The notes beneath the pieces are model-generated. The model was not told the DNA's origin. It saw only the letters and a list, made by a program, of their open reading frames with translations, and did no database searches. A stretch of DNA of 64,000 nt from Chiloscyllium plagiosum (lineage: Eukaryota), in contig NC_057718.1 in NCBI RefSeq assembly GCF_004010195.1, forward strand, positions 83,160,669 through 83,224,668. The letters run 5' to 3'. Within the stretch, counting starts at the first letter, position 1, and every line of letters starts with the position of its first letter. The position numbers were made by a program, and so were the translations under genes. Positions 659 to 60,120 of this stretch are shown here, in pieces.

Positions 659-1112
659 CAGTTATATAGTTAATTTAGTGTTGTAATGCACACCCAAAAT
701 CATATTACAGGGCTCCAGTAACAGATAATGGTAGTGCACTATGATAGGGTGGTGAAATCACTGGTAGATGGGCTAATGCTGAAGATAATGGTGGGATTTT
801 GAGATAGGTTAAGTGTAATGTAGGGAACCAGTGTGGCAGACAATGATTATTTTAGAAAGACAAAGCAAGCCAGTATGATTAGTTATGCTAATGTTATCTG
901 ATAAATGCAGGAACAACAGCTGTATAAACTGCAGTGAGACAATGGATTGGTGGGCAATCAGGAAGCCATTAGTTGATTGTCACAGCTTTTCTTTGCAAAT
1001 TAAAGTTTAACTTCGTGAGGGATTTTCTGCATCCCCTGGTACTTTTTACAGAAAATTGAGTGATTCTTCCGTGTGAGAGTATATAACACTTGTTGTTAGT
1101 TAAATGTTTGTG

Positions 1113-1211
1113 GTAAAAACAATGACTGCAGATGCTGAAAGAGCACAGCAGTTCAGGCAGTATCCAGGAAGCAGTGAAATCAACGTTTCGGGCAAAAGCC
1201 CTTCATCAGGA
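1113..1211 (-). mobile_element. Short Penelope-like (PLE)-derived insertion with a hammerhead core
   Basis: 15-bp TSD AGTTAAATGTTTGTG (1098-1112, 1212-1226); minus strand CTGATGA-AGGGC-TTTT-GCCC-GAAA-CGTT at 1182-1209. Confidence 0.85.
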
Positions 1212-1440
1212 AGTTAAATGTTTGTGTCTTGTTCCCCAAATCGAGATCCGGGAGTGTTTTGATTTTAATTTTGCACTGTAGGAATTTATGATATTGATTT
1301 TTTTTAAAAGAGGTTTTTCAAGGAACCATCAGTGATTAGTGTTTTCTGCAGATGCAGTCCTAGAATAGTATAGGCAGAACAAATGAGAATAGATAATTTC
1401 AACTAATTAATAAAAACAAAGGAAGTTTAGGGACTGATGT

Positions 1441-2195
1441 GGCTTGATAACGTCATCTCAGGCTGACGTCATGAGGATCAGTAAATCCTTCTATGCCAGT
1501 CTGTATGACTCGAAGCCAAACGACAGCGCGGCCTCCCAGTCACTCCTGTCCTCTATCACGGAGGTCTTAGACAACAGAACATGAGAGGGGCTGGACCAGC
1601 CACTATCTCTGGACGAGCTGACCAAGGTCCTCGAGTCCTTCGAAAAGAATAAAACTCCCGGAAGCGACGGCTTACCGGTCGAGCTCTATTCTGCTCTGTA
1701 GGACTTGATTGGCCAGGACCTGCTGGAGGTGTATTTCAGTATGCTTCAGGCAGGTACCATGAGTGAATCCATGAGGAAAGGCATCTACAAGCAGAAGGGG
1801 GAAGAGGGAGGAAATCAGAAATTGAAGACCAATATCACTATTGAATGCAGATTACAAAATCTTGGCAAAGGTCATCGCCAACCAGGTCAGGTCTTTGTGT
1901 GTGGCTGCATCAAGCTGTGCATAGATCCCCGGTACGCAGACACCAAGTGTCACTACGTACTGAGGTTCTACCTGTCCCCGGTGTTGCGAAGGATGGGCCT
2001 GGCCTCACTGTCGCGGAACGCTCCGAGTAGTTGGACCGTTCCGTATCACTTGTCCTTCGTGGAGAAATTTATGAAGAAAAACACCTTTAACCACAAGTCC
2101 ATCAGGAAGTGGTCAGCACATAGTGTCCTTGAGACCCTTCGGGAAAAGGAGAGGGCGGATCCTATCGAGCGGTTCCCTGAGCAGACTGTCAAAGC
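1441..2195 (+). mobile_element. Tx1-type (L1 clade) LINE ORF2 fragments with internal deletions
   Basis: KTPGSDGLPVELY, ADYKIL and LSFVEKFMKKNTFNHKSIRKWSA pieces; near-identical to segments of 56076-58908. Confidence 0.85.
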
Positions 2196-3900
2196 CACGT
2201 CCCACCATAGCCTCAGGGAGGGGAAGCTTCCCCGCTTCCCCGCTTCCTTCTCCAGCCGGCCCAGAAGCGACGAAATGAGTTCCAGAACTGCTCATCCTCC
2301 AGCAGCGGGTTGTTAAAGTGCCAGTACGCGGAGCCAAGCCTGGCACCAAACACAAGGAATTCTGCCCACACCAGGTGATGGTCCGTGCATGACACCTGCC
2401 ACGTGGAGGCCCTCGGAAAACAGGAGGCGTACGCCCGCGAAATGTACAGGCAGTCGACTCTGGATGCTCCGACCCCAGGCCTCACGAAGGTGAAGGCGAT
2501 GGAGTCGGGATGGAGATTCCGCCAAACGTCCACCAGGTCAAAGGACTTGACCAAGTCCCCCCACCGGTGCGGGCACCGCCGTGGTCCCTGCCCTCGAGGG
2601 CGCAGTTAAAATCTCCCCCGAGGACGGCGCACTGGCTCTCATCAATGGAGGCGAGATGAGCGGACACTTCTCCGAAGAAGCTCGCTTGCCTCGGCCCGGC
2701 CAGGTGAGCGTAGCCGTTCACAAAGTGGCGCACTGCACCCCCCAGCCGAACCATCAGGTGAAGCAAGTGGCCTGGCACAGGCTCCCTGACCCCCAAGATC
2801 TACGGCTGAAAATCCGGGGCCAACAAGATAGCCACCCCGCCAGATCTGAGGGTGAGGTGACTCATGTAGATCCCCCCCTCGCCACTCCAGGAGCCAGGTG
2901 GCTTCGTCTCCAGGGGTAGTGTGGGTTTCTTGCAGGAAGCACACCGCATACCTCCCGTCCCGAAGGTCCAAGGGAGTCTGGAATCTGCACTGTGACTCCC
3001 TGCTGCCGTTGATGTTGAGGCTGGCTATAGTTGTCTTCATGTCGGAAGCGTTGTGCAACCACCACCAGTACAGTTAAAAACTATATACATTTACTGGGAG
3101 GACGAGGAAGGGGCACAGAAGTCCCTCGCCCTCACCAGGAGTGCCCCCAGGAAGTTCCTGACTCGCTTTTGCTCATTAACATCAAGCCCATGCACCTGGC
3201 GAGCAGCGTGGGCCGACCAGTAAACTCTCTCAAAGGAGCTCCAGCAGTCGAGCACCAGTTGGGCTCTATCCTGGCGACTCAGGAGTTTCCTCGACAAACT
3301 CGAGTTCCTCGAGGGAGATGAGGGGGAGATTGGTGAGGGGCACCTGGGACTCAAAAATGTCACTGGAGACAGACTCCGCGACGTCCCGAATGTCCACCAC
3401 CAATCCCAAACCCTCCTCCGGGATATCGCCCTCGGTCACCGACCCCTCACCCAGCACCCCCACCCCCAGGGTCACCAGCAGTACCTTCCTCAGCGCACCC
3501 CTTCCCGGAATGCCCCAAGTTCGGGTCGTTGGGCGGCAGACGGTTGGGGCCCCGCTCCTCTCCCGACACAGGGACGCCCAGCTCCTCAGGGAAAAGGTCC
3601 TCCCCCAGCGCCAAGGCCCCTGGAAAAACAGTCTGGGAGTGTGGAGTGAGGATAACACTTTACTCCCCTCTACCGCTCAACGATCCAGCAGAGAGTTCAG
3701 TGTTATCACCCGCCCTACAGCCCATGTGGGTTTTTAAAGTCCTCCCAGGGGCCGGTGGAATTACTGCAACAGAGGGTCCTGCTGTAGCCCCTGGGGGTTG
3801 GGTAGGTCAGGCTACGGTGCAGGACATACCATAGGCTCATCCACTGGAGAGGAGCAGCACTGCTGGGATATCTCTCCCCTCCAAGGGCCAGCACCTCTTC
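2196..3900 (-). mobile_element. Second Tx1-type LINE: end of ORF1 and AP-endonuclease start of ORF2
   Basis: TIASLNING..FLQETH, LGGDFNC, SRVD.LY, TDHHLV and WHFNN endonuclease motifs spread over frameshifted ORFs. Confidence 0.85.
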
Positions 3901-5601: not shown

Positions 5602-6968
5602 GGACAACCAACTCCCATTCCTAGATGTGATGGTACAGAGAACACCTAACGGATAATTCACCACAAAGGTACACAGGAAAGCCACACACACAGACAAAGT
5701 CCTGAACTATGAAAGCAACCACCCCAACACACACAAAAGAAGTTGCATCAAGACACTGTTCAAAAGGGCCACAACACACTGCAGTACACCAGAACTGCAA
5801 AAAGAGGAAGAAAAACACCTATACAATGTATTCGCCAAAAACGGATACCTGCGCAATTNNNNNNNNNNNNNNNNNNNNNNNNNNNNNNNNNNNNNNNNNN
5901 NNNNNNNNNNNNNNNNNNNNNNNNNNNNNNNNNNNNNNNNNNNNNNNNNNNNNNNNNNNNNNNNNNNNNNNNNNNNNNNNNNNNNNNNNNNNNNNNNNNN
6001 NNNNNNNNNNNNNNNNNNNNNNNNNNNNNNNNNNNNNNNNNNNNNNNNNNNNNNNNNNNNNNNNNNNNNNNNNNNNNNNNNNNNNNNNNNNNNNNNNNNN
6101 NNNNNNNNNNNNNNNNNNNNNNNNNNNNNNNNNNNNNNNNNNNNNNNNNNNNNNNNNNNNNNNNNNNNNNNNNNNNNNNNNNNNNNNNNNNNNNNNNNNN
6201 NNNNNNNNNNNNNNNNNNNNNNNNNNNNNNNNNNNNNNNNNNNNNNNNNNNNNNNNNNNNNNNNNNNNNNNNNNNNNNNNNNNNNNNNNNNNNNNNNNNN
6301 NNNNNNNNNNNNNNNNNNNNNNNNNNNNNNNNNNNNNNNNNNNNNNNNNNNNNNNNNNNNNNNNNNNNNNNNNNNNNNNNNNNNNNNNNNNNNNNNNNNN
6401 NNNNNNNNNNNNNNNNNNNNNNNNNNNNNNNNNNNNNNNNNNNNNNNNNNNNNNNNNNNNNNNNNNNNNNNNNNNNNNNNNNNNNNNNNNNNNNNNNNNN
6501 NNNNNNNNNNNNNNNNNNNNNNNNNNNNNNNNNNNNNNNNNNNNNNNNNNNNNNNNNNNNNNNNNNNNNNNNNNNNNNNNNNNNNNNNNNNNGACCAGCT
6601 ATCCTTAGTAGCCACACACTCAGATGACAAGCAGCATCAGTTCAACTGGGACAACACTACTATTATAGGACAAGCCAAACAGAGAACAGCCAGGGAATTC
6701 CTACAGGCATGGCACTCATCCACAGTTTCAATCAATAAGTACATCGACCTTGACCCAATATACCGGCCACTGCAACGGACAGCTGGAACTGACAACCGGA
6801 AGCGGCAGATTCAAACCACTACAAATGCCGGAGGAAAGATCACAGAAGTGCTTCATAGGAGACTCCCAAGCACTCAGGATGTCACCTAGACAGGGGTCAA
6901 CACAAATTCCCAGCTCGCGAACAGAACCACAACAACGAGCAGCCGAGCTACAAATCCTCTCTCAAACT
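5602..6968 (+). mobile_element. 5'-truncated Penelope-like element (RT C-terminus, endonuclease tail, 3' repeat); contains N gap 5859-6592
   Basis: LPFLDV..VHRKATHTD..NHP..K..IKTLFKRA..CS...NGY and SLVATH..H.FNW..REFLQAW; 13-bp TSD TTGCATTTGTAAA (5589-5601, 6969-6981). Confidence 0.9.
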
Positions 6969-7509
6969 TTGCATTTGTAAAATGAATCAATCAGTTAAAT
7001 CACAAAACATAATGACTAAGTGAGCAGATCAGAAAAAAAAATCTACAGGCATTCCAGCAACCAGCATATTAGCAAGCTAGAAACAGCAATCAACTATTGC
7101 AAATGACTATCCTATCTATCAGCAAAAGCCATGTTACTCGTATTAACTTTCAACAAGCCCCCATTTTCCCATTCTGTAATCTCCAGTATGAGCTTAAAAA
7201 AGGAAAAACTCTGAAATAATATTTAAGTTAGAATTCAGAATTATGTAAAAATTTAAAATTATTAATAAACTGAATCATCCTCTATAATATGATTCAGAAA
7301 TAGCCAAATAACTTCTCTGCATCTCATTTAAGCCATTGTATGAAGTTCTATATACATGAGGCTTGAAAGACTTTTTCAAACGTTTATTCCAAATCTTATT
7401 CCAAACAGTCTTCAGATAGAAATCTAATTTTCTAAGTCTTTTGAAAAAAATGGCTCATCATATTAAGGAAAAGGCCACTGGAAGATGAATCTTTGGGAGT
7501 GAGTGGGAT

Positions 7510-8092: not shown

Positions 8093-8651
8093 CTAATTTT
8101 AAAAATGAAAAAAAACTAATAAATTTCCAACGAAAGTTTGTGATGTATGCCCAGACCTGGTTTCTAAACTATTTTCTTGCCCACCACCCTTCCTCTAACT
8201 GGCAGAAAGAGGTATGGCAGAATGCTAAAATCTTGAAAATGAAAATCCTACTACATTCACATCAAGCATAACATGCAGTTTAGTCCATCAACAAGACCCC
8301 AATGAAATCAGATAGGGATACACTTACAATATAATAGTCACAGCCCAAAAGCATAATCATTATTGTTAAATACAAATATTTAAATCATTATAGTTCAATA
8401 TTCTTAAAGTTCATATTAAATCAACTTGATTACTTATTTTCTTTAACCTAATTTGCTGAGACATTAATGTGTGATCAAACTATACTGCATTTATTTGGTT
8501 TTAATGTCTTTTTTTACTTCTGCAACTTCTAGATATCCTCTAGGAGAAACTTCTGCTCATTCACTACTGGACGACATTCAAGAAGTGTAACATATCAAAA
8601 ATAGCAGAGGAGATTGGATATAGAATAAAAATAGAGAGATGCTGTAAGTCA

Positions 8652-8766
8652 GAAACAAAAACAGAAATTGTTGATAAAGCTCAGCAGATTTGGCAGCATC
8701 AAAGTTCTGAGGAAGGGTTACTGGACCTGAAATGCTAACTCTAATTTCTCTCCACAGATGCTGCCA
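8652..8766 (+). mobile_element. Degenerate PLE terminal-repeat piece with a decayed hammerhead core
   Basis: CTGAGGA-AGGGTT-ACTG-GACCT-GAAA at 8707-8732; inverted TTGGCAGCATC...GATGCTGCCAA arms. Confidence 0.6.
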
Positions 8767-9470
8767 AAGCCCCAGTTTATTCAGCCTCCTCCCTCTAGCT
8801 CAAACCCTTCAATCCTGGCAACATCCTTGTAAATCTTTTCCAAACCCTTTCAAGTTTCACAACATCCTTCTGATAGGAGGGAGACCAGAATTGCAAGCAG
8901 TATTCGAAAAGTGGCCTAACCAACGTCCTGTACAGCCGCAACATGACCTCCCAACTCCTAGACGCAATGCATTGACCAATAAAGGAAAGCAGAGCTTTTG
9001 CCCGAAACGTCGATTTTGCTGAAGCTCCTCGATGCTGCCTGAATTGCTGTGCTCTTCCAGCACCATTGATCCAGAATCTGGTTTCCAGCATCTGCAGTCA
9101 TTGTTTTTACCAATAAAGGAAAGCATGCCAAATGCCGCCTTCACTGTCCTATCTACATGCAACTCCACTTTCAAGGAACTATGAACCTGCATTCCAAGGT
9201 CTTTTTGTTCAGCAACATTTCCCAGGACCTTATTATTGAATGTATAAGTCCTGCCCTGATGTGCCTTTCCAAAATGCAGCATCTCACATTTATCTAAATT
9301 AAACTCCATCTGGCACTCCTCAGCCCATTGTCCCATCAGATCAAGGTCCCGTTGGACTCTGAGGTAACCTTCTTCTATGTCCACTATGCCTCCAAATGTG
9401 GTGTTATCTGCAAACTTACTAACCACATCTCCTATGTTCATATCCAAATCATTTATATAAATGACGAAAA
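8767..9470 (-). mobile_element. CR1/HER1-like LINE RT fragment interrupted by a PLE-derived insertion
   Basis: SKFADNT, FNLDKCEMLHFG and LVRPLFEYC motifs. Confidence 0.9.
8992..9108 (+). mobile_element. Short PLE-derived insertion with a partial hammerhead, nested in CR1
   Basis: TSD ACCAATAAAGGAAAGCA (8975-8991, 9109-9125); starts inside stem II (CTTTTGCCC-GAAA-CGTC); same 3' end as 1113-1211. Confidence 0.85.
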
Positions 9471-13070: not shown

Positions 13071-13938
13071 TGAGGAGGTAAAAGGTTGCTGATACCTTGT
13101 GAAATCATGTACAGCATTTCAGGGCATTCAAGGGGTAGAAGACAAAACTTTAATTAAAAATTCATAACATATGAATTAGCAACTTTTCCTTTAGTAGGCC
13201 TTTCAACCCTTCAAGCCTATTTCATCATTTGGTAAGATCATGGCTAGTCTGTTTGTGTTCCAAATTTCAAACTCACATTTACCTCTGATAACTTTTGATT
13301 TCTCTGCCTAAAAAGAAACTATCTACTTCCACCTTAAAGATATTTAACGATCCTGCCTCCACTACTTTTTTCAATACTACTTGTTATGAAGTTGAAGACG
13401 TGTACTGTACCTTTAAAAGAGACTGAAAGATATTCAGCACTGAGGTGTTGCAGGCACTTGTCATGTGACTGACTAACTGTCTGAGTGTGTACTGGAAACT
13501 TGAAAATATGTTACATTTGGCTGTTTTCACAACAGTTTGAATTTAACCAATCAGTTTAAATTATGCCCAAGGATACTAAAACCCAATCGAATTTGAATTT
13601 ATTGTTTTTGACAAAATCGAATCAATGAGACGATCCGATGAGGAGTAGGCATTTTGGAGAGTTAGGCAGAGAGTGACAAACTGCCATCTAGAGAGAGAGA
13701 GAGACTGCCATTCAAAACTCTCTATCAAAAATACCTTTTTCATATGAAACATCTTTGCAGCAAAAGACCGAAGATGACCCAGCGAGAACTGCAGCTGAAA
13801 GAAGACAGACACCACGACAGCCACTGTCTGGTTTTGAAAATTAAGTTGATGTAATTTTAATAGGGGTATTTATTGCATCCGTTTATTGTTATAGAGTTGG
13901 AGGTATATAAGAAACCTTTAAGAGAAAGGAGGCTTAGA

Positions 13939-14137
13939 AGTTTGTGAGAAGATTTGTAGCTCGGGTGCTCATTGTTGTGGTTGTGTTCGCAGAGCTGGGA
14001 ATTTGTGTTGCAGACGTTTCGTCCCCTGTCTAGGTGACATCCTCAGTGCTTGGGAGCCTCCTGTGAAGCGCTTCTGTGGTGTTTCCTCCAGATTTTATAG
14101 TGGTTTGAATCTTTCGCTTCTGGTTGTCAATTCCTTA
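13939..14137 (-). mobile_element. PLE 3' fragment (family of 5602-6968) with an intact minimal hammerhead
   Basis: 10-bp TSD GAGGCTTAGA (13929-13938, 14138-14147); colinear with 6780-6968. Confidence 0.88.
14010..14049 (-). ncRNA. Minimal type I hammerhead ribozyme motif
   Basis: GCA-CUGAGGA-U-GUCACCU-AGAC-AGGGGAC-GAAA-CGUC|UGC: core complete, 3-bp helix I, helix II, palindromic ACGU helix III. Confidence 0.75.
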
Positions 14138-17867: not shown

Positions 17868-17960
17868 TTGCTCCTTGGATGCTGCCTGACCGGCTATGCT
17901 TTTCCAGCACCACACTCTTCGACTCTGATCCCCAGCATCTGCAGTGTTCACTTTCTCCCT
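17868..17960 (+). mobile_element. PLE terminal-repeat 3' fragment without a ribozyme core
   Basis: GGATGCTGCCTGACC...CCAGCATCTGCAGT.TCACTTTCTCC shared with the 49848 and 50152 copies. Confidence 0.75.
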
Positions 17961-20619: not shown

Positions 20620-23600
20620 GGGACTCGGCAAGATGGCGGCGATTCTGTAGAACTGCTGTGGACAGCTCTGCCTAACAGCCAAAACATACTGTTGTTTTAT
20701 TGCCATCTCTGGCCAACTTATGCGGTGGAATTATTAGTTTAAAACCTTACAGATCACATATTTGTTAATATTTGGAAGTGGGGAAGGATGCCAAAGGGAA
20801 AAGGAGCAAGCAAACAGCAGCTGGGAGGACACTCCCCTGCAGTACCTACTATACCAGAGACTACAGCAGCAGCAGCCTCTCCTAAACCCCCTAGGGACTT
20901 GACAGACTCACAGGAATTGTCTGTGGCGATGGAGAGACTTACCTTGAAAGTTGTGGCTGCGATTGAGGAGATCCGTGGGGAGATTCATGCCCAGGTCCAA
21001 CCTATTGCATCCATGCTGCAGAAGCATGAGCAGGAGACCAGGGCCTCGGGGAGCGGCTGGAGGAGGTGGAGGGTTGAACTAAGGCCTCGGAAGCTGCGAT
21101 GGAATCCTCATCCAGTCGGATCCAGGTGCTGGAGCGAGAGGTGCAGGCCTTGCAAAACCATATCGACCACCTCGAAAATCGAGGTCGGAGGATAAATCTC
21201 CGAATTGTCAGGCTCTCAGAAGGTGAGGAAGGTGAGCAGCCAGTCAGCTTCTTTGAAAATTGGCTGACGAAGTTCTTGGGCCTTCACATTGAGTCCAGCA
21301 GGCTACAGATTGAAAGGGCTTATTGGGTTACAGTGCACAGGTCAGGGCCAGTGCAGTGCCCCCACCCAGTCCTAGTGCACTTCCACTCATATAAGGACAA
21401 GCAAAAAGTCATAGAAGCTTCCAGATCCCTGGGAAAAGATCCACAGGCACTGCTGTACAAGGGGTCAAAAATCATGCTTTTCCAGGATTTCTCTGCAGCT
21501 GTAATTCGAAAGAGGAAGTCCTTCGATAAGTTAAAAAGAGGCTGGGGAACCTGGGTATCCAGTACTCCATGAGATACCCTGCAGTACTTTGTTTCAGCCA
21601 CAAGGACTCAGTTTATACAATTGACTCGGCGGATAAAGCTAAAAACTTTGTGGACACTTTAAAATAGACGGATTGGCCTGAAGAATACTGTTCATGTTTG
21701 TTCTCTTTTCTATCTTTCCCCATGTTTTCTTATCCTTTCTTTCTCCCTAATAATTTACTTTTTGGAAAGGGGGGGGGAAAGACCTTGGAATAAATTGGTC
21801 GTTTTTTTTTTAATAATTGGATTTTCTGATGGGCAATTTTGTGAATGTTCTTTGTTGTCTCTCCCCCATTTTTTTTTGTTTGTTCTGTTTCTCTTTTAGT
21901 CACAAGTCAGGGTGACATGAAGCCCAGGGATGGCTGGAGTGCTCATCCTGACTTGGTCTTTTTTCTGTTGATTTAAGGAGCATCTCCTTGTTTTTTTTCT
22001 GGCCTAAGGCTGGGGCACAGTCCGGGTTTGAAGGAGCTGTGAAGGAGGGGATAGGTAGGGTGAGTGCCCCCGATGGGCAGGGGGAAGAGTCTTCCATTCA
22101 AGGTTTTATAGTTGGTTTTCTTTGTAGTTTTTTGGTAGTAATAGTTGTTTATAGTTATGATAGAGTAGTTTTTGTATATATAGTTTATCGATTCTATGAG
22201 TCTTTATTTATTTATGCTTGGCGCTTTGTAAGCAGGGTTCTCCCTTCGAGGGGTTCAAGGGTCTCTGAAAGGGGATTCAGCTAAGTGTCTTATTAAATGA
22301 TGCACCTGGTACATTAAGAGAAGTCATTCGCCTGTTAAAAGGAAAAAAGTGCTTTCTAGTCTTATGAGGGATATTTGGAGATGTCGTCACCATACTGGCA
22401 AGGACTTCACCTTTTTTTAAACCCACATAAATTTCACATGAGGATTGACCTCTTTCTGGCTCCCTTGGCCCTTCTGAATTTGATTATGGGTTGTAAAATT
22501 GGGAATATATTTATCTCTGATCACACGGCAATATATTTGGAGGTTAAGGCCAAGAGTGAAGGGCTAGGTTTGTGGCACTGGCGTTTGGACCCTTTTCTCC
22601 TTAAGGATTCCAAATTTGTGGAATACGTTTTGAAAGAGTTTCAGGAATTCTTGACTATCAACTCAGGCACAGCTAGTAGTTCATCTCTTCTGTGGGAGAC
22701 TGCTAAGGCCTATGCTAGGGGATTTGCTATTTCCTATTAGGCTAGCCGGAAACGACAGAAGGAGGAACAGCAGCATCTACTTGAGACGCGGTTGAATGCC
22801 GCCAAGGCGGCACATTTTGTGCGGCCTTCAGTGACTAAGCTACAGCAGATCACGACCTCCGGGCTGCCTTGAATTCAATACTGACACAAAACGCAAAGAA
22901 AGAACTTGCTTTTGCTAGACAAAGGCTGTTTGAATATGGGGATAGGCCAGGGAAGTATTTAGCATACGTGACTAGGAAAAAGCGTGCTCCCCAATCCATT
23001 ACTCCAATCAGTGACAGCACCGGGGTCCTTACATACGATGCCAAAAAGATTAATGAGGCTTTTCGGAGCTTTTATTCTAAATTGTATCGGTCTGAAGGTA
23101 GGAAAGACAGGAGGGCTAAAATAGAGACCTTTTTTAAGAACCTGGACCTCCCAGGGGTAACCCTGGAACAGGCCTCTCTCCTTAATACCCCCTTGACAGT
23201 TCAGGAAATACAGGAGGCAGCTAGGCAACTTCAGAGTGGAAAAGCGCCTGGCCCTGATGACCTCCCGGGTGAGTTTTATAAGGAGTTTATAGGAATTCTG
23301 TCAGGGCTGATGTTGGAGATGTACAATCACTCCTATATGCATGAATGCCTACCACCATCTTTGAGAGAAGCTAATATTTCCTTAATTCTTAAGAAGGGGA
23401 AGGTTCCTGATGATTGTGCCTCATACAGGCCCATTTCACTATTAAATTCAGATTTCAAGATTCTGTCTAAGATCCTGGCACTGAGATTGGAAAGGGTGTT
23501 GCCCCATATTATTAAAGAGGACCAGTCAGGCCTTATAAGGGGCTGTAGGTCCTCTAATAGTATCAGAAGGTTGCTGAATGTGGTCCAAGTTTGTCAGCAA

Positions 23601-25904
23601 CAATCGATTCAGGGGTTGGTAATTTCCTTACATGCAGAGAAAGCATTTTACCGGGTGGAATGGCCGTATCTTTTTTAAGTCTTCGGACAGTTTGGGTTGG
23701 GTGGAGGTTTCTTATCACCACCCTCTGGACGCGGTCGTCATCAACAGGGTGAAGTCTGGGAATTTTAGGATTGGTAGGGGTAGTCGGCAAGGCTGCCCCC
23801 TCTCACCGTTGTGGTTTATGTTGGTGATAGAGCCGCTGGCAGAGGCCATTCGTCAGAACATCCACATAACCGCTCCGGAAGTGGGATCGAGGGCACACAA
23901 GATTACACTGTAAGCAGATGATGTCCTGTTTTTATCGAACCCGATGACCTCCATACCCCATTTGATACAATGTATCAATTCAGTTGGGGCTATTTCAGGA
24001 TATAAGATTAACTTNNNNNNNNNNNNNNNNNNNNNNNNNNNNNNNNNNNNNNNNNNNNNNNNNNNNNNNNNNNNNNNNNNNNNNNNNNNNNNNNNNNNNN
24101 NNNNNNNNNNNNNNNNNNNNNNNNNNNNNNNNNNNNNNNNNNNNNNNNNNNNNNNNNNNNNNNNNNNNNNNNNNNNNNNNNNNNNNNNNNNNNNNNNNNN
24201 NNNNNNNNNNNNNNNNNNNNNNNNNNNNNNNNNNNNNNNNNNNNNNNNNNNNNNNNNNNNNNNNNNNNNNNNNNNNNNNNNNNNNNNNNNNNNNNNNNNN
24301 NNNNNNNNNNNNNNNNNNNNNNNNNNNNNNNNNNNNNNNNNNNNNNNNNNNNNNNNNNNNNNNNNNNNNNNNNNNNNNNNNNNNNNNNNNNNNNNNNNNN
24401 NNNNNNNNNNNNNNNNNNNNNNNNNNNNNNNNNNNNNNNNNNNNNNNNNNNNNNNNNNNNNNNNNNNNNNNNNNNNNNNNNNNNNNNNNNNNNNNNNNNN
24501 NNNNNNNNNNNNNNNNNNNNNNNNNNNNNNNNNNNNNNNNNNNNNNNNNNNNNNNNNNNNNNNNNNNNNNNNNNNNNNNNNNNNNNNNNNNNNNNNNNNN
24601 NNNNNNNNNNNNNNNNNNNNNNNNNNNNNNNNNNNNNNNNNNNNNNNNNNNNNNNNNNNNNNNNNNNNNNNNNNNNNNNNNNNNNNNNNNNNNNNNNNNN
24701 NNNNNNNNNNNNNNNNNNNNNNNNNNNNNNNNNNNNNNNNNNNNNNNNNNNNNNNNNNNTTGCCCAGCAGAGATCTTTTCCATTTTTTTTTAGGTTATGG
24801 ATTTCATCCAGAAGAAGACTATGCTTCTCACTAAGCCCTATAAGCCCGATACAGAGAGGTGGTTGCTACATTCCACAAGCACCTTTCGGTTAGTGCCCTC
24901 TATCGCCTGCTGGGTGGCAGGGCCTGGCAGGATATTAACTGGTTATGTGAGGTCTGGGAGCAAGAGCTAGGAGTGGAGATCTCTTCTGAAACATGGGAGA
25001 ACATATGGGAGAATACTCTAAAGATCTCAATCTGTAATAGGACACGCGCTATGCAGTTAAAAGTTCTGCACAGGGCTCATCTGGCACCAGACCGTCTGGC
25101 AAAGTTTAAAAAAGGGGCATCTTCAGTGTGCCCCAAATGTAAAATAAGTGTAGGTACTCTTACCCATTGCTTCTGGACATGCCACAGGCTCCGTTTTTAT
25201 TGAAGCACTGTGGGGGGAGAGATAGGGAGCGTATTGAGGATTGAAGTCAAAGTAGGCCCTTTATCTCTCCTCTTACCAAATTTACCATCTTTAGACGGGC
25301 ATGGGAAGAAACTATTTAATATTCTTGCACACTGTGCACGGAAGAATATTCTGATGAATTGGATGTCTGAGAACCTGCCGGGCTGGCTGGGATGGCAGAA
25401 ATTAATTATGGAGCACATTCCCTTCGACCTTTTCACAAACATGGTGCACCACACAACAGACCATTTTTATAAGACATGGCAGCCCTACTTGAGTTATTTG
25501 GATATAGCTTTGTCAGTTATCCTAACGAGGGCGTTTGTCTAACCAGGTTGGTTAGATTTGACAAGCCCTGGGCCCTAGAGAGGGGGTCTCCTGAGTTAAT
25601 AGGGGTATATATACATTGCTCCTGTTCCTTTGTTTGGGAGCTTTGCGCCGAGCATAGCTGTTCTGTATTTTGTGGGGTTTTTTTGGTTTTGGTACTTTTC
25701 TTTTTTTTTTGGTGTTGCTTTGCACAATGTTAGGGTTTGCTTTGTATTATAGGGTAAGTTAGTAGTTGGTAGACAGTATTTGGATTGTAATTTATGGGTT
25801 TTTTTGTTTTTATTATACTGATATTTGTTATTGATTGTATTTTTCAATAATTTTATCTGTTTGTAAAGTTAAAAAAATTTGCAAATAAATATATTTACAA
25901 AACC
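20620..25904 (+). mobile_element. Near full-length L1 LINE, inactivated; antisense within a kinase intron; N gap 24015-24759
   Basis: 5' GGGACTCGGCAAGATGGCGG; ORF1 about 20788-21667 (LENRGRRINLRI), ORF2 about 22270-25542 (KAPGPD, YRPISLLN, RQGCPLSP, CPKC..HCFWTC); AATAAA tail; 11-bp TSD AAATTATTTCA (20609-20619, 25905-25915). Confidence 0.93.
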
Positions 25905-26538
25905 AAATTATTTCAAAGCTTGTCAATGAAAGAATTCTCGGAGCAAGTGATTTTGTTTTGGTTCCTCACCTATGACTGAGATTCCCAGCTCTTCTGAACC
26001 ATGTCTCTTGCGAAAACAGGCAGACTCTATTGAAGTAGTGGAACACCTAAAATGGCCATTTGGTTATGAAGTAGACTCACCATCCACCCCTTTATCCTGG
26101 GACCATAACAATCCCATAAAGCTAGAATGGGGCAGGAATCCTTAGGATCAGACTGTCTACCTCATTTGGGAAGATTACCCTTGAGTATAGAGTTGGCCGT
26201 ATCTATAGAATCTGGTCTTTTGAATGAATTACTACTACTACATGGATAGGAAAATGAAATGGAGAGCACTGAAGTAACTGCAAAAGTAATTCATATCTTA
26301 ACTGCCTTTTTCCCACTGTTGCCTCTCTCTTACATTCAATCCTGTCCTCTGCCCCTCCTAAACATATCATGCAGCATTGAAGAATTCTTCTCATTGAGAA
26401 AAAAAGACCCAAGGAGACAGAGAAAAAGAAAGAGAGATGCTGCCTGACCTATTGAGTTTTTCCTAGATTTTCTGTAATTAGGAGATCTCATAGTGGTGGT
26501 AAACTTGGGAGAGAGAGGTTAGCAGCACGCCTATCCTT

Positions 26539-26846
26539 TAGATTAGATTCCCTACAGTGTGGAAACAGGCCCTTCGGCCCAACTAGTCCACACCGACCCT
26601 CCGAAGAGTAACCCACCCAGACCCATTTCCCTCTGACTAATGCACCTAATACTATGGGCAATTTAGCACAGCCAATCCACCTGACCTGTACATCTTTGGA
26701 CTGCGGGAGGAAACCGGAGCACCTGGAGGAAACCCACACAGACACAGGGAGAATGTGCAAACTCCACTCAGATGGCCGCCCAAGGCTGGAATCGAACCTG
26801 GGACCCTGGTGCTGTGAGGCAGCAGTGCTAACCACTGAGCCACCGT
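26539..26846 (-). mobile_element. HE1-type V-SINE
   Basis: A/B boxes, V core and CR1-like tail. Confidence 0.9.
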
Positions 26847-27141
26847 GAATATTTTCAGTACACTAAGATAAAGTTAAAAAGTTAAAAAGAACTTGGCTTT
26901 TAAAGTGATTATATTTGTATGGAATACTGTGATTTGCAAGCTCATGTGTACTCCACTCAGATGGCCGCCCAAGGCTAGAATCGAACCTGGGACCCTGGTG
27001 CTGTGAGGCAGCAGTGCTAACCACTGAGCCACCATGAATATTTTCAGTACACTAAGATAAAGTTAAAAAGTTAAAAAGAACTTGGCTTTTAAAGTGATTA
27101 TATTTGTATGGAATACTGTGATTTGCAAGCTCATGTGTACT
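26761..27141. repeat. 189-bp tandem duplication (SINE head plus unique flank)
   Basis: Unit 26761-26949 repeated from 26950 with two substitutions. Confidence 0.92.
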
Positions 27142-41920: not shown

Positions 41921-42518
41921 ATGGTCAATGAATGAATTCTTCACCCAACAAACTTCCATTGGAAACATGTCTCAGTTGAACCCTGACTAGCTTGTTCCAA
42001 CCAATGCTGCATCACTCTATCATGATGTTCCACCTACTTAGTGTCCTCTTCTTCCTTTACAAAAGACTGCTGCTGCTCTTTCAGCTTTTAAGCGTCCATT
42101 ACATCACATCTTTGTTAGTTCCAGCTGTGCAGAACAGAACATGCAAGAATTACGCAGCACACCCTGTCTGGACTCGATTGCAAAGCTTCTCCACACAGCC
42201 TGACCCCCTCACTATCCCTGACAATCAAACCAATCCAAATATCAGAATCTCATCTTCAGGAGGCCTGTCATGAGCTCCATTATAGCCCTGGTGAAAGAAT
42301 GGGCTGTATCGTACTCAGCCCTGGTTGCAAACAGTAGTTCTTGTCTCCCAGTGACTGTCCTGCTAAGGTAACCGGCCCTCAAAAGTTCTCAAGGATATAA
42401 GCATCAAGGCAGTTTCCAGGATACCTGGTGTAAAATTCTAAGATGTAGTACTGATGATCACAGATTACTTGCACATTGGGGGAATGAAGTCTTTACTGTT
42501 AATAGTTAAAATAAAACT

Positions 42519-43165
42519 TGACAAAACTCTGCAGGTCTGGCAGCATCTGTGGGAAGAAAACAGAGGTAATGTTTGGAGTCCAGTGACTCTTCGTCAGAAC
42601 TGAATAGCAGCTAGGAAAAACTTGTGTTTATGCTGATGTTGAGATGGGTGGGCTGATGCGGGCAGTGAGGTTAGGAAGGTGAGAGAATAGATGGAGATGG
42701 AGTCCAGAGACAGAGATATGAAAGGGGTAGGAAACAATGGAATTATGGATGGTAGGCCAGGACAGAAGAGAAGCTGAATAAGTGATAATGAGAGCTGAGA
42801 TTAACAGAGAATGGGTAGTCTATGTTAAAAGCAAACCACGTCATATGATCATACCCAAGTGACTGGTTTGCAGAACATTTAGGTTCTGTTCATAAAGATG
42901 ACCCAGATCTTCCAGTCACCTGCCAATTTAACATACCACTGTATTCCCACACCAACATTTCTGTCACAGGCCTGCTGCAGTGCACCAGTGAGCCTCAGCG
43001 CAAATTCAAAGAACAGTAGCTCATTTTCCCCTTGGGGACCCTGCAGCCTCTAGTACTGATCTCCCATGAGTTATATAACTTGATAGTCTGATTCCATTCT
43101 TCCATACACATCCCCACACCCAATTGCTTTTAGCACAGCCAACACATTTTCACCCACTCTCAGGC
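42519..43165. mobile_element. Decayed PLE with inverted halves (terminal repeat on minus, endonuclease C-terminus on plus)
   Basis: Minus CTGACGA-AGAGTC-ACTG-GACTC-CAAA near 42570-42598; plus GLLQC.SE.QRK..EQ.LIF.LGTLQP near 42970-43050. Confidence 0.65.
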
Positions 43166-45783: not shown

Positions 45784-46573
45784 ATGTGCATTTATTGCAA
45801 GGGAATTAGAGTACAGAAGTAAAGTACATTTGCTGCCAGCATTCCCTTCAATGGTCTTGCTGGCTATGCAGACCTCTAAGGTCCTTATAGCCCTGTCGTC
45901 TGGAATTGGAAAGTTGATTGCTAGAATTGTCTTCTTATTAAGCTGTCCTCAAGACTTAGGATGACATTGTTCTGCGACAGAATAGTGGATCCTGAGGTGA
46001 CTAAACAGTCTGATGCTAATCTTCCCACACTGCCACAGGGGAAGCAGGAGGTGGTTTGAAAGATGGGTGGGTGAGATGGTTGGGTTTTCACACACCCATT
46101 CTACTTTTTACACTCAGCCTCCACCTGGGCCTGTTGGAAATGCACAAGATGGTTGGCACCTTTGCAGCCGTTTCTTCTCCGGTTTGGATGGTCTAGGATA
46201 AGAAATACCCACAGGTTGATGGGGATGCTAAATTTTTTTAATTGGAGGCTTTGTAGTTGCACTTGAAGCAATTCCTCGGAATTTGTGGTAACTGCTTGTT
46301 GTAACAAAGCTCAAAGCAGAAAGGCTGTTTCAAAACGTAGAGGGTGTTGTACAAAAGGTTCTTTTGCATAAAGGCACCTTTGACATGTCCTCATCAGACA
46401 ATAGAATCAAAGTGTGGCACTGGAAAACGCACCGTAGGTCAGGCAGCATTTAAGGAACAGGAGAGTCAGCAAGGATAGTATCACCACCACCAACACTGCC
46501 CCCACCACCACCAGTAGAGAGAAAATAGGGGCATGTTAATACCATTAGGGTGACAGTGAAAGGCAACATTAGA

Positions 46574-47225
46574 AGTACTGGAAAAGCACAATCGGCCACG
46601 CAGCATCCGAGGACCAGCAAAATAAATGTTTCAGGCATAAGCCTTTCATCAGGAATGAGGCTTGTGGGCCAAGGGAGCTGAGAGATAAATGGAAGTCGAG
46701 TGGCGCTAGGGGCAAGGTACCTGGGAAAGCGATAGGTAGATGAAGGTGGGGATGAAAGTGATAGGTCAGAGAGGAGGGTGGTGCAGATAGGTGGGAAGGA
46801 ATATGGACAGGTAGGACCGTTCAGGAGGGCTGTGCCGAGTTGGGACTGGGATAAGGTGGGGGCAGGGGAAATGGGGAAACTGCTGAAATACACTTTGAGC
46901 CCGTGGTTGAAGTGCCCCGAGATGGAAGATGAAGCATTCTTCCTCCGGGTGTCAAGTATTAGGGTTTTGGTGATGGAGGAGGCCCATGACCTGCATATCC
47001 GTGGCAGAGCAGGAGGAGGAGTTAAAGTGTTCAGCTGCAGTGCCGTGGAGTTGGTTGGTATAGGTGTCCAAGAGATTTCTCTGAAATGATCTGAAAGTTA
47101 GTGTCCTGTCTCCCCAATGTAGAGGAGACCACATCGGGTGCAAGGGATGCAGTAGATGATGTGTGTGGAAGTACAGGTAAATTTCTGTCAGATGTGGAAG
47201 GATCCTTTGGGGGATTGACGGTAAA
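46574..47225 (-). mobile_element. Penelope-like element 3' end: GIY-YIG endonuclease remnant plus hammerhead-bearing terminal repeat
   Basis: FTCTSTHIIYCIPCTRCGLLYIGETG (about 47105-47183); CTGATGA-AAGGC-TTAT-GCCT-GAAA-CATT at 46625-46652. Confidence 0.85.
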
Positions 47226-49435: not shown

Positions 49436-49847
49436 GAGAGAAACTTGCCACATACAATGAAGCTATTATTTTCTCTGCATCACAAAACTGGTGGCAACCT
49501 TGCATTTCTACAACCTCCAAGTTTGTATTGTTGCTGTGCTTACCTTCATCGCCAAGTATGTCAATAAGTTTTGGAAGTGCACTTAGATCAAGAACGCCTT
49601 CAAGATTTGGACCTGTAAACATGTCAAAGTAACTCTGAAGGTGGATGGTAAGAGACCAATCCTCCATCATTCCTTCAGCTGCACGATTGAGGCATTCTTG
49701 GGCTACCTACCCTACACAGAACAGCACAAAGATTTGTCACTCCCATGACCAAGCTGTGCAAATCACTGAACTGTTACAGCATAGAGGGCCATTCAGTATA
49801 TATTGTCTGCACCAGTAATCCACATAAGCAAGTCAATTAGAGACATT

Positions 49848-49989
49848 AGGAGAAAGTGAGGACTGCAGATGCTGGAGATCAGAGCTGAAAAATCAGGAAT
49901 GAAGAATGGCTTATGCCCGAAACGTCAATTCTCCTGCTCCTCGGATGCTGCCTGACCTGCTGCGCTTTTCCAGCAACACATTTTTCAGC
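49848..49989. mobile_element. Short PLE-derived insertion with inverted arms
   Basis: 15-bp TSD TCAATTAGAGACATT (49833-49847, 49990-50004); GAGCTGAAAAAT...ATTTTTCAGCTC arms; partial hammerhead GGC-TTAT-GCCC-GAAA-CGTC. Confidence 0.85.
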
Positions 49990-50151
49990 TCAATTAGAGA
50001 CATTTCCTGGTGTTCTCTTTGTAATCCTGCACATTATTACTATTCAGATAACAGTTTGATTCCCTTTTGAATGTTTTAATTTGAATGCTACACTTTCCAG
50101 CTGTGTAATTCACACCTTAATTGTTTGCTACATGAACAAGATTTTTTCTCA

Positions 50152-50405
50152 GGAGAAACTGAGGACTGCAGATACTGGAGATCAGAGTTGAGAAGTGTGG
50201 CACTGGAAATGCACAGCAGGTCAGGCAGCATCCAAGGTGTAGGAGAATTGACGTTTCAGGCTTAAGCCCTTCATCAGGAATGTGTGTGTATATTGGGGTG
50301 GAGTGTGGACAGGGCTGAGAGATAAATAGGAGATTGGGGATGAGGTAGCTGGGAAAGCGATAGATAGATGCAGGTGGGAGGTGATGGTGATAGTTCGGAG
50401 GGAAG
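50152..50405 (-). mobile_element. PLE terminal-repeat insertion with a complete hammerhead core
   Basis: 12-bp TSD GATTTTTTCTCA (50140-50151, 50406-50417); CTGATGA-AGGGC-TTAA-GCCT-GAAA-CGTC at 50250-50277. Confidence 0.85.
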
Positions 50406-50417
50406 GATTTTTTCTCA

Positions 50418-51982: not shown

Positions 51983-52096
51983 AGCCCTACAAAAGCAGGG
52001 CCACAAAAAATTATTTAAAACTCTGAGTGTTCCTCTCCACGGAAATCTTTAGTAAAAGGCGAAAGATTTATACGATCTGAAGAGAAACCAGAGTAT
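51983..52096 (-). ncRNA. RNU5: U5 spliceosomal snRNA gene
   Basis: Minus strand reads ATACTCTGGTTTCTCTTCAGATCGTATAAATCTTTCGCCTTTTACTAAAGATTTCCGTGGAGAGGAAC...; invariant loop 1 GCCTTTTAC (52052-52060), Sm site AATTTTTTG (52004-52012), 3' hairpin GGCCCTGC-TTTT-GTAGGGCT. Confidence 0.97.
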
Positions 52097-55392: not shown

Positions 55393-56050
55393 GTGTCATA
55401 GAGATGTACAGCATGGAAACAGACCCTTCAGTCCAACCCGTCCATGCCGACCAGATATCCCAACCCAATCTAGTCCCACCTGCCAGCACCCGGCCCACAT
55501 CCCTCCAAACCCTTCCTATTCATATACCCATCCAAATGCCTCTTAAATGTTGCAATTGTACCAGCCTCCACCACATCCTCTGGCAGCTCATTCCATACAC
55601 GTACCACCCTCTACGTGAAAAAGTTGCCTCTTAGGTCTCTTTTATATCTTTCCCCTCTGGACTCCCCGACCCCATGGAAAGGACTTTGCCTATTTATCCT
55701 ATCCATGCCCCTCATAATTTTGTAAACCTCTATAAGGTCTATTCCAAGTGGCCTAACCAATGTCCTGTACAGCCACAACATGACCTCCCGACTCCTGTAC
55801 TCAATATTCTGACCAATAAAGGAAAGCATACCAAACGCCTTCTTCACTATCCTATCTACCTGCAACTCCACTTTCAAGGAGCTATGAACCTGCACTCCAA
55901 GGTCTTTTGTTCAGCAACACTACCTAGGACCTTAACATTAAGTGTATAAGTCCTGCTAAGATTTGCTTTCCCAAAATGCAGTACCTCGCATTTATCTGAA
56001 TTAAACTCCATTTGCCACTTCTCAGCCCATTGGCCCATCTGGTCCAGATC
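55393..56050 (-). mobile_element. CR1/HER1-like LINE 3' fragment with deletions
   Basis: LYRTLVRPL joined to DLIEVYKIM; standard 3' tail. Confidence 0.92.
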
Positions 56051-56075: not shown

Positions 56076-58908
56076 TTTTTTTAATTTCAAAAATATACTT
56101 TATTCATAAAATAATTTCATGGTCTGTACAGTTGGTCATGCCATACATATGTAAACATTTACATACAGAGATCAGAATTTATCATTTTTATATACAGGTC
56201 TGTATGTTTTTCAATCATGTGCCCATATATTTAGCTGAGGCGTCAGCAGAGCCCAAATGACTGCGTGGGCCCCCTGTGCTTAGGCAGGCAGATGTTACAC
56301 GGTGGTCTTTCCCCACCGCGCCTTGGCGGCAGCTGCCCCAAGCTTCAGCGCGTCCCTCAACACGTAGTCCTGGACCTTGGAATGTGCCAGTCTGCAACAC
56401 TCAGTCGGGGTCAACTCCTTCAGCTGGAAGATCAACAGGTTTCGGACCACCCAGAGAGCGTCCTTCACCGAGTTGATGATCCCCCAGGCACAGTTGATGT
56501 TCGTCTCGGTGTGCGTCCCGGGGAACAGGCCGTAGAGCACGGAGTCCCGAGTCACGGCGCTGCTTGGGACGAACCTCGACAAATACCACTGCATTCCTCT
56601 CCAGACTTCTTCTGCGTAGGCACATTCCAGAAGGAGGTGTGTGACAGTCTCGTCCCTCCTGGAGCTGCTTCGAGGGCAGCGTGCAGTGCGGCTGAGAGTC
56701 CGGGCATGCATAAAGGATCTCACAGGCAGAGCCCTTCTCACCACCATGTCTTGGTGCTTGTTGGAAAGTTCTGGCGATGAGGCATTCTGCCAAATGGCTT
56801 TGACAGTCTGCTCAGGGAACCACTCGATAGCATCCGCCCTCTCCTTTTCCCGAAGGGACTCAAGGACACTACGTGCTGACCACTTCCTGATGGACTTGTG
56901 GTCAAAGGTGTTTTCCTTCATAAACTTCTCCACGAAGGACAGGTGCATGTCCAACTGTACAGACCATTAAAGTATTTTATGAATAAAGTATATTTTTGAA
57001 ATTAAAAGAAGTGTACTGCCTGCAAGATTTCCCTGCAGCAGGCTATTTCGACGTGACCTTCAGGAGCGTGAAGAATTGCGAGCAGCTCCTGAAGGTCTTC
57101 AAGGAGAAGGAAGGGTCGATGCCAGTGGGAATATCCTCCACCCAACCTCCAGCTTTGCCATTGGAGCAAGCAGAGGTTACCTGACATACGCAGGGCAGCT
57201 GAAAGTGTGCCGAACCTGCGTGAGGTCTGGCCACATGCCGACGGATTGTAAGGTGACCGTCTGCCGAAACTGCAAGCAGGAAGGCCACCCGACCAAGGAA
57301 TGTAAGGAGGCCAAGAACTGTAATCTATGCAGAAAGGTGGGCCACATGTACAAGGCCTGCCCAAGTCGAGGGGCCGCCACCTACGCACAGATGGCCGGAG
57401 GTGGCAACACGAGCCGTGGACCACCTAAGACCAGCAAGGTACCACAAAACAGCACAGGAATGGTGTCTGGAGGCACCCAGAAGGAAGGGCAGGCTATAGT
57501 GGAGCAGACGGCAGACAGCGGGGAGATGCAGCAGTCAATCCAAGCTCCTTCAAGACAGACGGAGGAAATGGAAGAGGAGGGATAAAAGGAGGCAGAGGAT
57601 TGGATTACTGTGAAAAGCAGGAAGAGGAAACCTCACAAGGCCCCCAACGCCACCCAGTGAAGGGGGAAGCGACACCTACACGACAAGGATACAGGCAGCT
57701 CTTCCGATGGTGAGGATGGGTGCAAGGAGGGTCGTCACCAGAGAAAGAGACAGAGCGCCGCGGGGAAAATGGAGGGCAGCACCGCCCAAACAGGAAAAGG
57801 CGATTCCTCTAAGGGGATGGGTAAAGGCCTCCCCCCACCCAGTGAGAACCTAGAGGTACCCACCGGCCCACAGCTCCAGGTAACTGGAAGCAGCGGTCCT
57901 GTGACAGCCCCGCTGTCACATGGAGAACTGGACTGTGTGGACCCTGGACCCGACCCGAAGACACCAGAGCAGGTAAATGGCCTCAGCGTGGAGCAGGACA
58001 GCTACCTCAGCCCTGGGAGGGTCCAGCAGTTTGCAGTCACTACAGGGATACGCAGCTACCCCAGAGGGGCAAGACCAGCAGCAAATGGACACTGTCACTC
58101 GTAAACTGTTAAAATGGGGTTAAAAATTGCCAGCATCAATGTGCGTAGCATCAAATCGGCTACGCGATGTGTTTCTACGATGGCCTTCCTGGCCAACGTT
58201 AAAGCCGACGTCCTGTTTCTGCAGGAGTGTGGGACACCGCACCTCAGCAGCTACAGGAGATGGTCGAGCTTATGGGCCCATGGGCCGTCAGTTTGGTCGG
58301 GGGGCAACGATAGCCGCGCCTCCGGCCTGGGTATCCGTTCTGTGGGACTTGATTGGCCAGGACCTGCTGGAGGTGTATTTCAGTATGCTTTGGGCAGGTA
58401 CCATGAGTGAATCCATGAGGAAAGGCATCATCACCCTCATCTACAAGCGGAAGGGGGAGAGGGAGGAACTCAAAAATTGGAGACCAATCTCACTGTTGAA
58501 TGCAGATTACAAAATTCTGTCAAAGATAATCGCCAACCGCAGGGATACGATCGCCTACGTGTAGGACAGAGGGTTGGACACCTGCCTGATCAGCCTGGAC
58601 CAGGAGAAAGCCTTTGACAGGATATCACACATGTATATGAGAGATGTTCTCTCCAAAATGGGTTTTGGGGAGGGAATCTGCAATTGGATCAGACTGCTCT
58701 ACACCAACATTGTCAGTGCAGTCTCAATCAATGGGTGGGAATCAGATAGCTTCCCAGTCAGATCTGGAGTTAGGCAGGGCTGCCCTCTCTCTCCTGCCTT
58801 GTTTGTGTGCTGCATAGAGCCATTTGCCAAGTCCATCAGGAAGGATGCGAGCCTGAGGGGGGTGACTATTCCTGGCACCGGCGCCTGCAGGTTAAGGCCT
58901 CCCTGATG
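56076..58908. mobile_element. Composite Tx1-type LINE insertion with inversion and multiple deletions
   Basis: 20-bp TSD TTGCTAAATATCGCAGAACT (56056-56075, 58909-58928); minus-strand 3' end 56076-56945; plus-strand ORF1 with three CCHC knuckles (about 57207-57360), then EN start MGLKIASINV and RT pieces (SLDQEKAFD, GVRQGCPLSP). Confidence 0.92.
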
Positions 58909-59992: not shown

Positions 59993-60120
59993 AGCTCTGA
60001 TGAAGAGTCAGCTAGACTCAAATCCTTAGTTTGCTTTCTCTCCATGGACGCTGCCTGATCCACTGTGATCTCCAGCATTTTGTTTTCAGTTGAGATTCCA
60101 GCATCTGCAGTAATTTACTC
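59993..60120 (+). mobile_element. PLE terminal-repeat fragment with a mutated hammerhead
   Basis: CTGATGA-AGAGTC-AGCTA-GACTC-AAAT (G of GAAA lost) then CCAGCATCTGCAGT end. Confidence 0.7.

Follow-up and report, generated by a model that had tools for sequence, protein, structure and literature searches.

What kind of sequence is the 99-bp insert that lies, between two copies of a perfect direct repeat, near the beginning of a 64,000-nt stretch of Chiloscyllium plagiosum DNA (NCBI RefSeq assembly GCF_004010195.1, contig NC_057718.1, positions 83,160,669 to 83,224,668 of the forward strand)? A sequence-only reading of this stretch, which we call the window and whose coordinates are used throughout, had proposed that the insert belongs to a family of tiny hammerhead-carrying sequences derived from a Penelope-like element (PLE), and that these spread as a distinct SINE- or retrozyme-like unit. 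We find that the inserts, which we call stubs, are a real and very abundant repeat of a described kind, namely elasmobranch PLE termini. In the reading that we prefer, and to which we assign a probability of about 0.8, they are the terminal module (a pseudo-LTR, or pLTR, with a minimal hammerhead and an optional tail) of an endonuclease-bearing PLE that is likely of Neptune type, and were likely laid down as short cDNA stubs by the element's own reverse transcriptase (RT) and GIY-YIG nuclease.

The insert itself, c1, is assigned to subfamily A and occupies 1113-1211 on the minus strand, from 2 nt upstream of the CUGAUGA box to the end of the tail. The flanking target-site duplication (TSD) is an exact 15-bp repeat (1098-1112 and 1212-1226), as had been claimed. 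The hammerhead core that had been described (CUGAUGA, a 4-bp stem II, GAAA and CGUU) is also present, with a bulged base to be added: in the sense of the element, the order is CUGAUGA, one bulged A, a 4-bp stem II with a UUUU loop, GAAA, CG and UU. This minimal core spans 1182-1209 on the minus strand, with C3 at 1209 and the predicted cut after 1182. The catalytic core is complete, and stem II is predicted by folding. Stem I is 2 bp long, and helix III lacks a loop, so that it could form only between two copies. With a complete core, a 2-bp stem I and a helix III that needs a second copy, c1 is a candidate hammerhead ribozyme. Its small size is explained in part by an internal deletion relative to a second copy, c2, to which it is 87% identical: the 28 nt that separate two CCAGCA-like repeats in c2 are absent from c1.

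A gapped pattern for the minimal hammerhead matched three times in the window and not at all in 100 shuffles, and a stricter scan that required a 4-bp stem II found four places in the window as against a single match over 30 shuffles together. Stem II pairing is held by two-sided changes, being GGGC/GCCC in c1, AGGC/GCCT in c7a and GAGTC/GACTC in c6 and c9, and this compensation between subfamilies speaks for selection on the RNA structure in the parent elements. The single-strand folding energies of eight segments were within the range of shuffled sequences (z from -1.8 to 0.7), and the case for the hammerhead therefore rests on the motif and the paired changes and not on energy. The Rfam hammerhead model, which had been suggested as a check, gave no match in the window at E values up to 1; the three Rfam matches that were obtained included only one credible entry, a U5 snRNA. 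Because the motif lacks a closed helix III, we do not take this null result as evidence against a hammerhead.

In these features the shark motif resembles the minimal PLE hammerheads described by Cervera and de la Pena (2014, PMC4209133), with which it shares a bulged base between A9 and stem II, a G10.1-C11.1 pair, a palindromic 15.2-16.2 without loop 3, and an occurrence mostly as single motifs; it differs from them in its 4-5 bp stem II and, in subfamily A, in its weak stem I. That paper reports thousands of single minimal hammerheads in several vertebrates, ascribed to truncated PLEs, with sharks unnamed in its main text, and it describes no cleavage by a single minimal motif and little by dimers.

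We then asked how many relatives of c1 the window contains. A DNA profile built from ten segments of the copies was searched over the window at E values up to 1e-4 and returned 13 segments at 11 loci, three of the segments being outside the training set; the next match had an E value of 0.4. The 11 loci in 62,437 called bases amount to one per 5.7 kb, and in comparison with described PLE insertions these stubs are both very short and dense. All five relatives that had been named beforehand proved homologous, and five further loci were added (c7a, c7b, c8, c9 and c10), two of which are joined to GIY-YIG coding sequence. The earlier description of the family as hammerhead-carrying holds as regards homology and fails as regards the ribozyme, since the catalytic core is intact in only two of those six copies, c1 and c5: the 5' end of c2 falls within stem II and that of c3 beyond the motif, the first box of c4 is rearranged, and the GAAA box of c6 is damaged.

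The copies differ mainly in where they begin and in whether they bear the tail. On the plus strand, c2 (8992-9108, 117 bp) lies within a CR1-type repeat, begins inside stem II and has a full tail, and c3 (17868-17960), recognized by homology to the module, begins downstream of the hammerhead and likewise has a full tail. A remnant of about 35 bp, c10 (26435-26469, plus strand), was matched by the profile at E 9.3e-5 and is outside the training set. On the minus strand, c5 (50152-50405, 254 bp), a match of the hammerhead pattern, consists of 128 nt of 3' UTR, a complete core at 50277-50250 and the tail, and c7b (46405-46469), a profile match, is a tail-less stub that starts approximately at the hammerhead cut site. 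Subfamily B is represented by c6 (59993-60120, plus strand), a stub with a tail and a 5-bp stem II whose 5' end adjoins a CR1-type repeat and which is 56-63% identical to subfamily A; by c8 (8630-8766), which also adjoins a CR1-type repeat and has two head-to-head arms, the tail arm on the minus strand and the hammerhead arm (8702-8766) on the plus strand; and by c9 (42510-42850, minus strand), a profile match whose hammerhead is damaged and which includes, upstream of it, about 250 nt of the 3' UTR. Inverted arms adjoin the insertion at c4, c8 and c9. In c4 (49848-49989, 142 bp) a 46-nt arm runs to the tail end and a 92-nt inverted arm to a tail-less end. At the joint of these arms (49894-49907), a short stretch that immediately precedes the hammerhead has been turned back into reverse orientation, with microhomologies of 2-3 nt, in what looks like a template-switch scar. 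The inversion joint of c9 (42840-42860) holds a 10-bp palindrome, and its arms overlap by about 50 nt at 73% identity; inverted PLE junctions with a palindrome have been described in work on rotifers (PMC3846280).

Evidence that the stubs are insertions comes from their flanks. Exact TSDs were found at 4 of the 11 loci, comprising the 15 bp of c1, 17 bp at c2 (8975-8991 and 9109-9125), 15 bp at c4 (49833-49847 and 49990-50004) and 12 bp at c5 (50140-50151 and 50406-50417), which agrees with the prior claim that several relatives have TSDs of their own. Only 3 of 20,000 random intervals were flanked by an exact 12-mer. The TSDs are 65-75% A+T. For c2 there are also empty sites for comparison: the target sequence is present once in each of five paralogous CR1-type sites in the window, one of them identical (55812-55828), and the duplication was therefore made on insertion. 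No TSD was found around c3 or c6 in a search that allowed mismatches, nor around c8, and a 13-bp repeat with two mismatches around c9 was not accepted. The shark TSDs, at 12-17 bp, are longer than the 8-10 bp of rotifer PLEs (Arkhipova et al. 2013, PMC3846280).

The connection to a PLE is made by two of the added loci. The 5'-truncated element c7a (46560-47217, minus strand) contains, in order, a GIY-YIG frame broken by stops and frameshifts (47217-46880), a pyrimidine-rich 3' UTR and the hammerhead module, with C3 at 46652 and no tail. Its first 45 residues are 73% identical to a protein of Chiloscyllium punctatum, P0001 (E 2.9e-13; 46 matches among 48 candidates), and in a TBLASTN search the match extends past the end of the domain into UTR sequence (E 2e-30). 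RT motifs, a cysteine linker and a GIY-YIG box are all present in P0001; its Pfam scores are under the cut-offs (GIY-YIG, E 2.5e-4; RVT_1, E 0.0077), and PF00078 is precomputed for many of its relatives. The closest of these are from sharks and rays (53-91% identity), followed by corals and molluscs near 50%. At c9, the inverted arm (42861-43049, plus strand) encodes the C-terminal part of a PLE GIY-YIG domain with a stop inside, 52% identical over 63 amino acids to P0047 (E 3e-19). With c9 making this link for subfamily B as well, both subfamilies are PLE termini. In addition, c5 is colinear with c7a over 129 nt upstream of the hammerhead. The module is colinear with the terminus of an autonomous-type PLE and has no sequence of its own, and the previous identification of PLE sequence with a minimal type I hammerhead is borne out by this colinearity at c7a and c9 together with the core pattern.

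As to the type of PLE, a CX2-5CxxC linker occurs in 105 of the 111 fetched homologues that have a YIGE-type box. This linker marks Neptune and Nematis (Craig et al. 2021, PMC8557442), and vertebrate PLEs are described as Neptune and Poseidon only (Li et al., bioRxiv 10.64898/2026.07.22.740005). The parent element is thus likely of Neptune type, an assignment made from the linker in homologues; c7a begins after the linker, and Nematis also has it. Neptune-type insertions as described in PMC8557442 and PMC3846280 share with the shark loci a pLTR with a hammerhead, an optional tail of 30-40 bp, a TSD, an adjacent inverted 5'-truncated arm and, in homologues, a C-terminal GIY-YIG domain with the CX2-5CxxC linker.

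We saw no full-length element in the window and no RT coding sequence joined to the module; translation of the module against 165 fetched proteins gave no credible match (one weak, E 0.006); Pfam gave no match for either of the short, broken GIY-YIG pieces; and a protein scan of viral contigs yielded no relative. A scan with a 23-letter motif gave 6 metagenome, 0 viral and 3 genome loci, which we discarded as chance matches, no locus having matched any copy beyond 34 bp.

To examine the ends of the module on a larger sample we aligned contigs from three DNA runs (organisms A, B and C), chosen out of 24 listed runs, to c5 at 80% likeness, which placed 43,898, 38,113 and 47,916 contigs, respectively. 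At the 3' side there are two boundaries. Loose ends pile up at 50151-50152 (670 + 474 in X1 and 750 + 533 in X9, among the rows listed; the pile is not among the six listed for X13), with an agreement of 0.33-0.35 and a median length of at least 255, the pattern expected where a constant 3' end gives way to unrelated flanking DNA. All three runs have a second pile, at 50193-50203, with the shared letters ending near 50182-50187, and it marks a tail-less 3' end. The sequence-only reading had predicted a fixed 3' end; the ends are indeed fixed, but there are two of them, about 34 nt apart. Joints that go back 33-37 nt (from 50181-50187 to 50149-50151) repeat the piece between them. Within the window, the tail is carried by c1, c2, c3, c5 and c6 and is missing from c7a and c7b. 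In c4 both ends are found inside one 15-bp TSD, the 46-nt arm ending at 50151 and the inverted 92-nt arm at 50185 in c5 coordinates, which fits what priming on two strands would give. Among the best 15 of 160 joint rows, five are opposite-strand joints, each with one side at 50280-50283. We dropped the idea that both 3' ends lie at an equal distance from a CCAGCA repeat, the repeats being 28 nt apart and the ends about 34. About 10 letters beyond the tail end at 50151-50152 are common to a plurality of contigs in two runs and form, with the tail, a pyrimidine tract ending in AG; these letters may be the element body continuing or a splice acceptor.

The 5' ends are less uniform. Counted from C3 of the hammerhead, with the cut site after +27, three loci reach far upstream (c7a to about -565, c9 to -250 and c5 to -128), five begin at the hammerhead's upstream edge (c6 at -4, adjoining the CR1-type repeat; c8 at -4 and c4 at +1, both inversion joints; c1 at -2; c2 at +8), and three begin downstream of the cut site (c7b at +28 to +31, c3 at +35 to +40, and c10 further downstream). 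The 5' ends are therefore spread, with an excess at -4 to +8 (5 of 11 loci), in a grouping that was made after seeing this small sample. The expectation that 5' ends would vary near the ribozyme was correct for most of the 11 loci. In the contigs, summed depth falls about 40- to 110-fold from the hammerhead bins to the bins 80-100 nt upstream, a depth that is no copy number and that is affected by the private sequence of c5 at 50283-50340, which clips alignments there. Contigs clipped at 50282 number 441, 413 and 514 in the three runs, and the plurality continuation is the UTR of c7a (agreement 0.34-0.37). Loose ends at this position are shorter than those at the 3' end (median 74-136), as is expected if many contigs run on into the repeat. 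Among the best 18 of 1,013 loose-end rows, none showed 5' ends piling up at the cut site (50249-50250), and we rejected ends set by the cut site as the main class, as only c7b fits. Hammerhead cleavage does not appear to set the 5' end.

These ends can be accommodated by a reaction like that reported for an anole element. At AT-rich sites, the Poseidon protein of the anole (PAc) cleaves both strands of the DNA and extends them (Frangieh et al. 2024, PMC11167929), and in vitro its RT starts at two internal sites that delimit the tail, without hammerhead cleavage (PMC11167929). By analogy, the shark element's protein would nick AT-rich DNA with a stagger of 12-17 nt, RT would be primed at one of two internal RNA sites, some 92 and 126 nt 3' of the first base of the hammerhead, and priming on one or both DNA strands would be followed by copying towards the RNA 5' end. 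Most copies would end within the first 50-135 nt. For the short copies, many templates likely begin just upstream of the hammerhead, as pLTR-started transcripts, or synthesis ends early; because the start sites are so near the hammerhead, stubs made from a pLTR-started transcript could not be longer than about 130 nt. The longer copies that reach towards or into the nuclease gene (c5, c9 and c7a) would come from read-through templates, including read-through of tandem copies.

The anatomy of the shark stubs, with two 3' ends, AT-rich targets, the two arms of c4 and 5' ends that lie off the cut site, fits the anole scheme, and the stubs are probably short products of a reaction of that type. 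The systems agree in having two 3' ends delimiting a tail, arms on both strands and AT-rich targets, and in not needing cleavage. They differ in that the RT start sites of PAc lie in an AC-rich stem-loop (PMC11167929), the tail of the shark stubs being pyrimidine-rich, and in that the in vitro work concerned a Poseidon element whereas the shark stubs are likely of Neptune type. Judging from a few copies, the RNA that serves as template may have its start at the upstream edge of the hammerhead. Long templates on which synthesis stops early would account for the observations almost equally well; the fall in depth upstream of the hammerhead is sharper than one would expect from simple truncation. 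The template may be the RNA that itself encodes the protein (in cis) or a shorter sibling of that RNA (in trans).

A variant of this scheme, which we consider unlikely, is that the main template is a short RNA that runs from a few bases upstream of the hammerhead to past the tail and is made by stubs as well as by full elements, so that a module of 130 nt would spread in trans in the manner of a SINE and the uncut hammerhead would act as a signal for RT binding or folding. Should this hold, elasmobranch genomes would preserve a vast natural archive of RT starts, two-strand priming and run-off points, and demonstration of a short RNA that propagates itself would give vertebrates a PLE-driven SINE-like unit.

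The stronger proposal of the sequence-only reading, a separate lineage of non-autonomous, SINE-like RNA of about 130 nt that starts at the hammerhead, is transcribed from stubs and is mobilized in trans by the PLE protein, seems to us quite improbable. It would account for the five loci that start at -4 to +8, for the steep depth step upstream of the hammerhead and for the opposite-strand joints at 50280-50283, and it has precedents in the rotifer, where pLTR sequences are reported to be enough for mobilization in trans (PMC3846280), and in butterflies, for which short non-autonomous Penelope elements are mentioned (PMC6685494). However, two of those five ends are inversion joints and one adjoins a CR1-type repeat, 3 of the 11 loci reach 128, about 250 and about 565 nt upstream while another three begin downstream of the cut site, and the 413-514 contigs per run that are clipped at 50282 continue, in the plurality, as PLE UTR. 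Among the joint rows listed, a single contig, from one run, had a deletion like that of c1. A distinct unit would moreover be expected to have sequence of its own: no tRNA, 7SL or 5S RNA head was matched by Rfam at the stub loci, and the module is colinear with c7a and c9, which largely amounts to the outcome that the sequence-only reading had named as refuting it, namely the lack of a consensus that differs from the autonomous element. On these grounds, and with no tandem arrays, neither the SINE-like nor the retrozyme-like unit that had been proposed is upheld.

In a retrozyme origin, a tandem hammerhead repeat would be processed into monomers, linear or circular, which would then undergo reverse transcription and reinsertion. 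The shark stubs are like animal non-LTR retrozymes (Cervera and de la Pena 2020, PMC7229834; Li et al. 2026) in having a type I hammerhead, in being non-coding and in their kinship to pLTRs; Li et al. tie retrozymes to pLTRs and describe most PLE insertions as 5'-truncated with one terminal repeat (bioRxiv 10.64898/2026.07.22.740005). A head-to-tail joint (50282 to 50152, a 131-nt module, the intervening letters being undefined) was found in 2, 5 and 3 contigs of the three runs. Yet this joint is rare, and partial tandems are normal for PLEs. Non-LTR retrozymes are described as tandem units, each with a canonical hammerhead, that yield circular RNAs (PMC7229834), whereas the shark stubs are dispersed singles of variable length with a minimal motif that has no loop 3 and no Rfam hammerhead match; none of 10 tandem-repeat rows in the window is the module; and the 5' ends, which show no pile at the cut site among the rows listed, are not those expected of monomers that run from one cut to the next. 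We regard a retrozyme as very improbable. Least credible is an origin as solo pLTRs, formed like solo LTRs when the two terminal repeats of a full-length insertion recombine. Recombination would give a short module inside an intact TSD and has been invoked, along with deletion, for rotifer solo pLTRs (PMC3846280), but it predicts one constant length, against TSD-flanked copies of 99, 117, 142 and 254 bp with differing 5' ends, and is at odds with the inverted arms of c4.

The preferred reading, a PLE terminus inserted as short cDNA stubs, bears on two points that are stated as open questions in the literature, namely how PLEs finish insertion and what the hammerhead does (PMC11167929, PMC4209133). 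Copies of the c4 type and the excess of 5' ends at the hammerhead edge make both testable by counting ends in shark assemblies. A PLE expansion in shark has already been published (bioRxiv 10.1101/443036). The stub family is undescribed in the literature that we found; Repbase, Dfam and supplements may contain it, and the supplement of Li et al., with its one cartilaginous fish, may include related consensuses.

The window also holds other elements that we record here. A third minimal-hammerhead module of about 197 bp, unrelated to the two subfamilies, is present at 13938-14134 (minus strand) and 6785-6969 (plus strand), with 84% identity between the copies. Its core lies at 14013-14046, its 3' part is AC-rich, the copy at 6785 lacks the GAAA box, and a near-TSD of 10-11 bp surrounds the copy at 13938-14134. 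In its AC-rich tail and in the sequence that precedes 6785, it resembles what we take to be a Poseidon-type PLE. A long broken element with ORF1-like and ORF2-like frames and an assembly gap inside it (20743-25539, plus strand) is presumably of L1 type, and two related broken non-LTR elements (1702-3800 and 56235-58903) have an aspect that we assume to be Tx1-like; repeats that we take to be of CR1 type and tRNA-SINE-like fill much of the window. A near-perfect tandem dimer of a 189-bp unit (26761-27141, 98%) overlaps a SINE-like repeat. Finally, the credible Rfam match mentioned above is a U5 snRNA gene or copy at 51984-52096 on the minus strand, matched over its full length with 103.8 bits.
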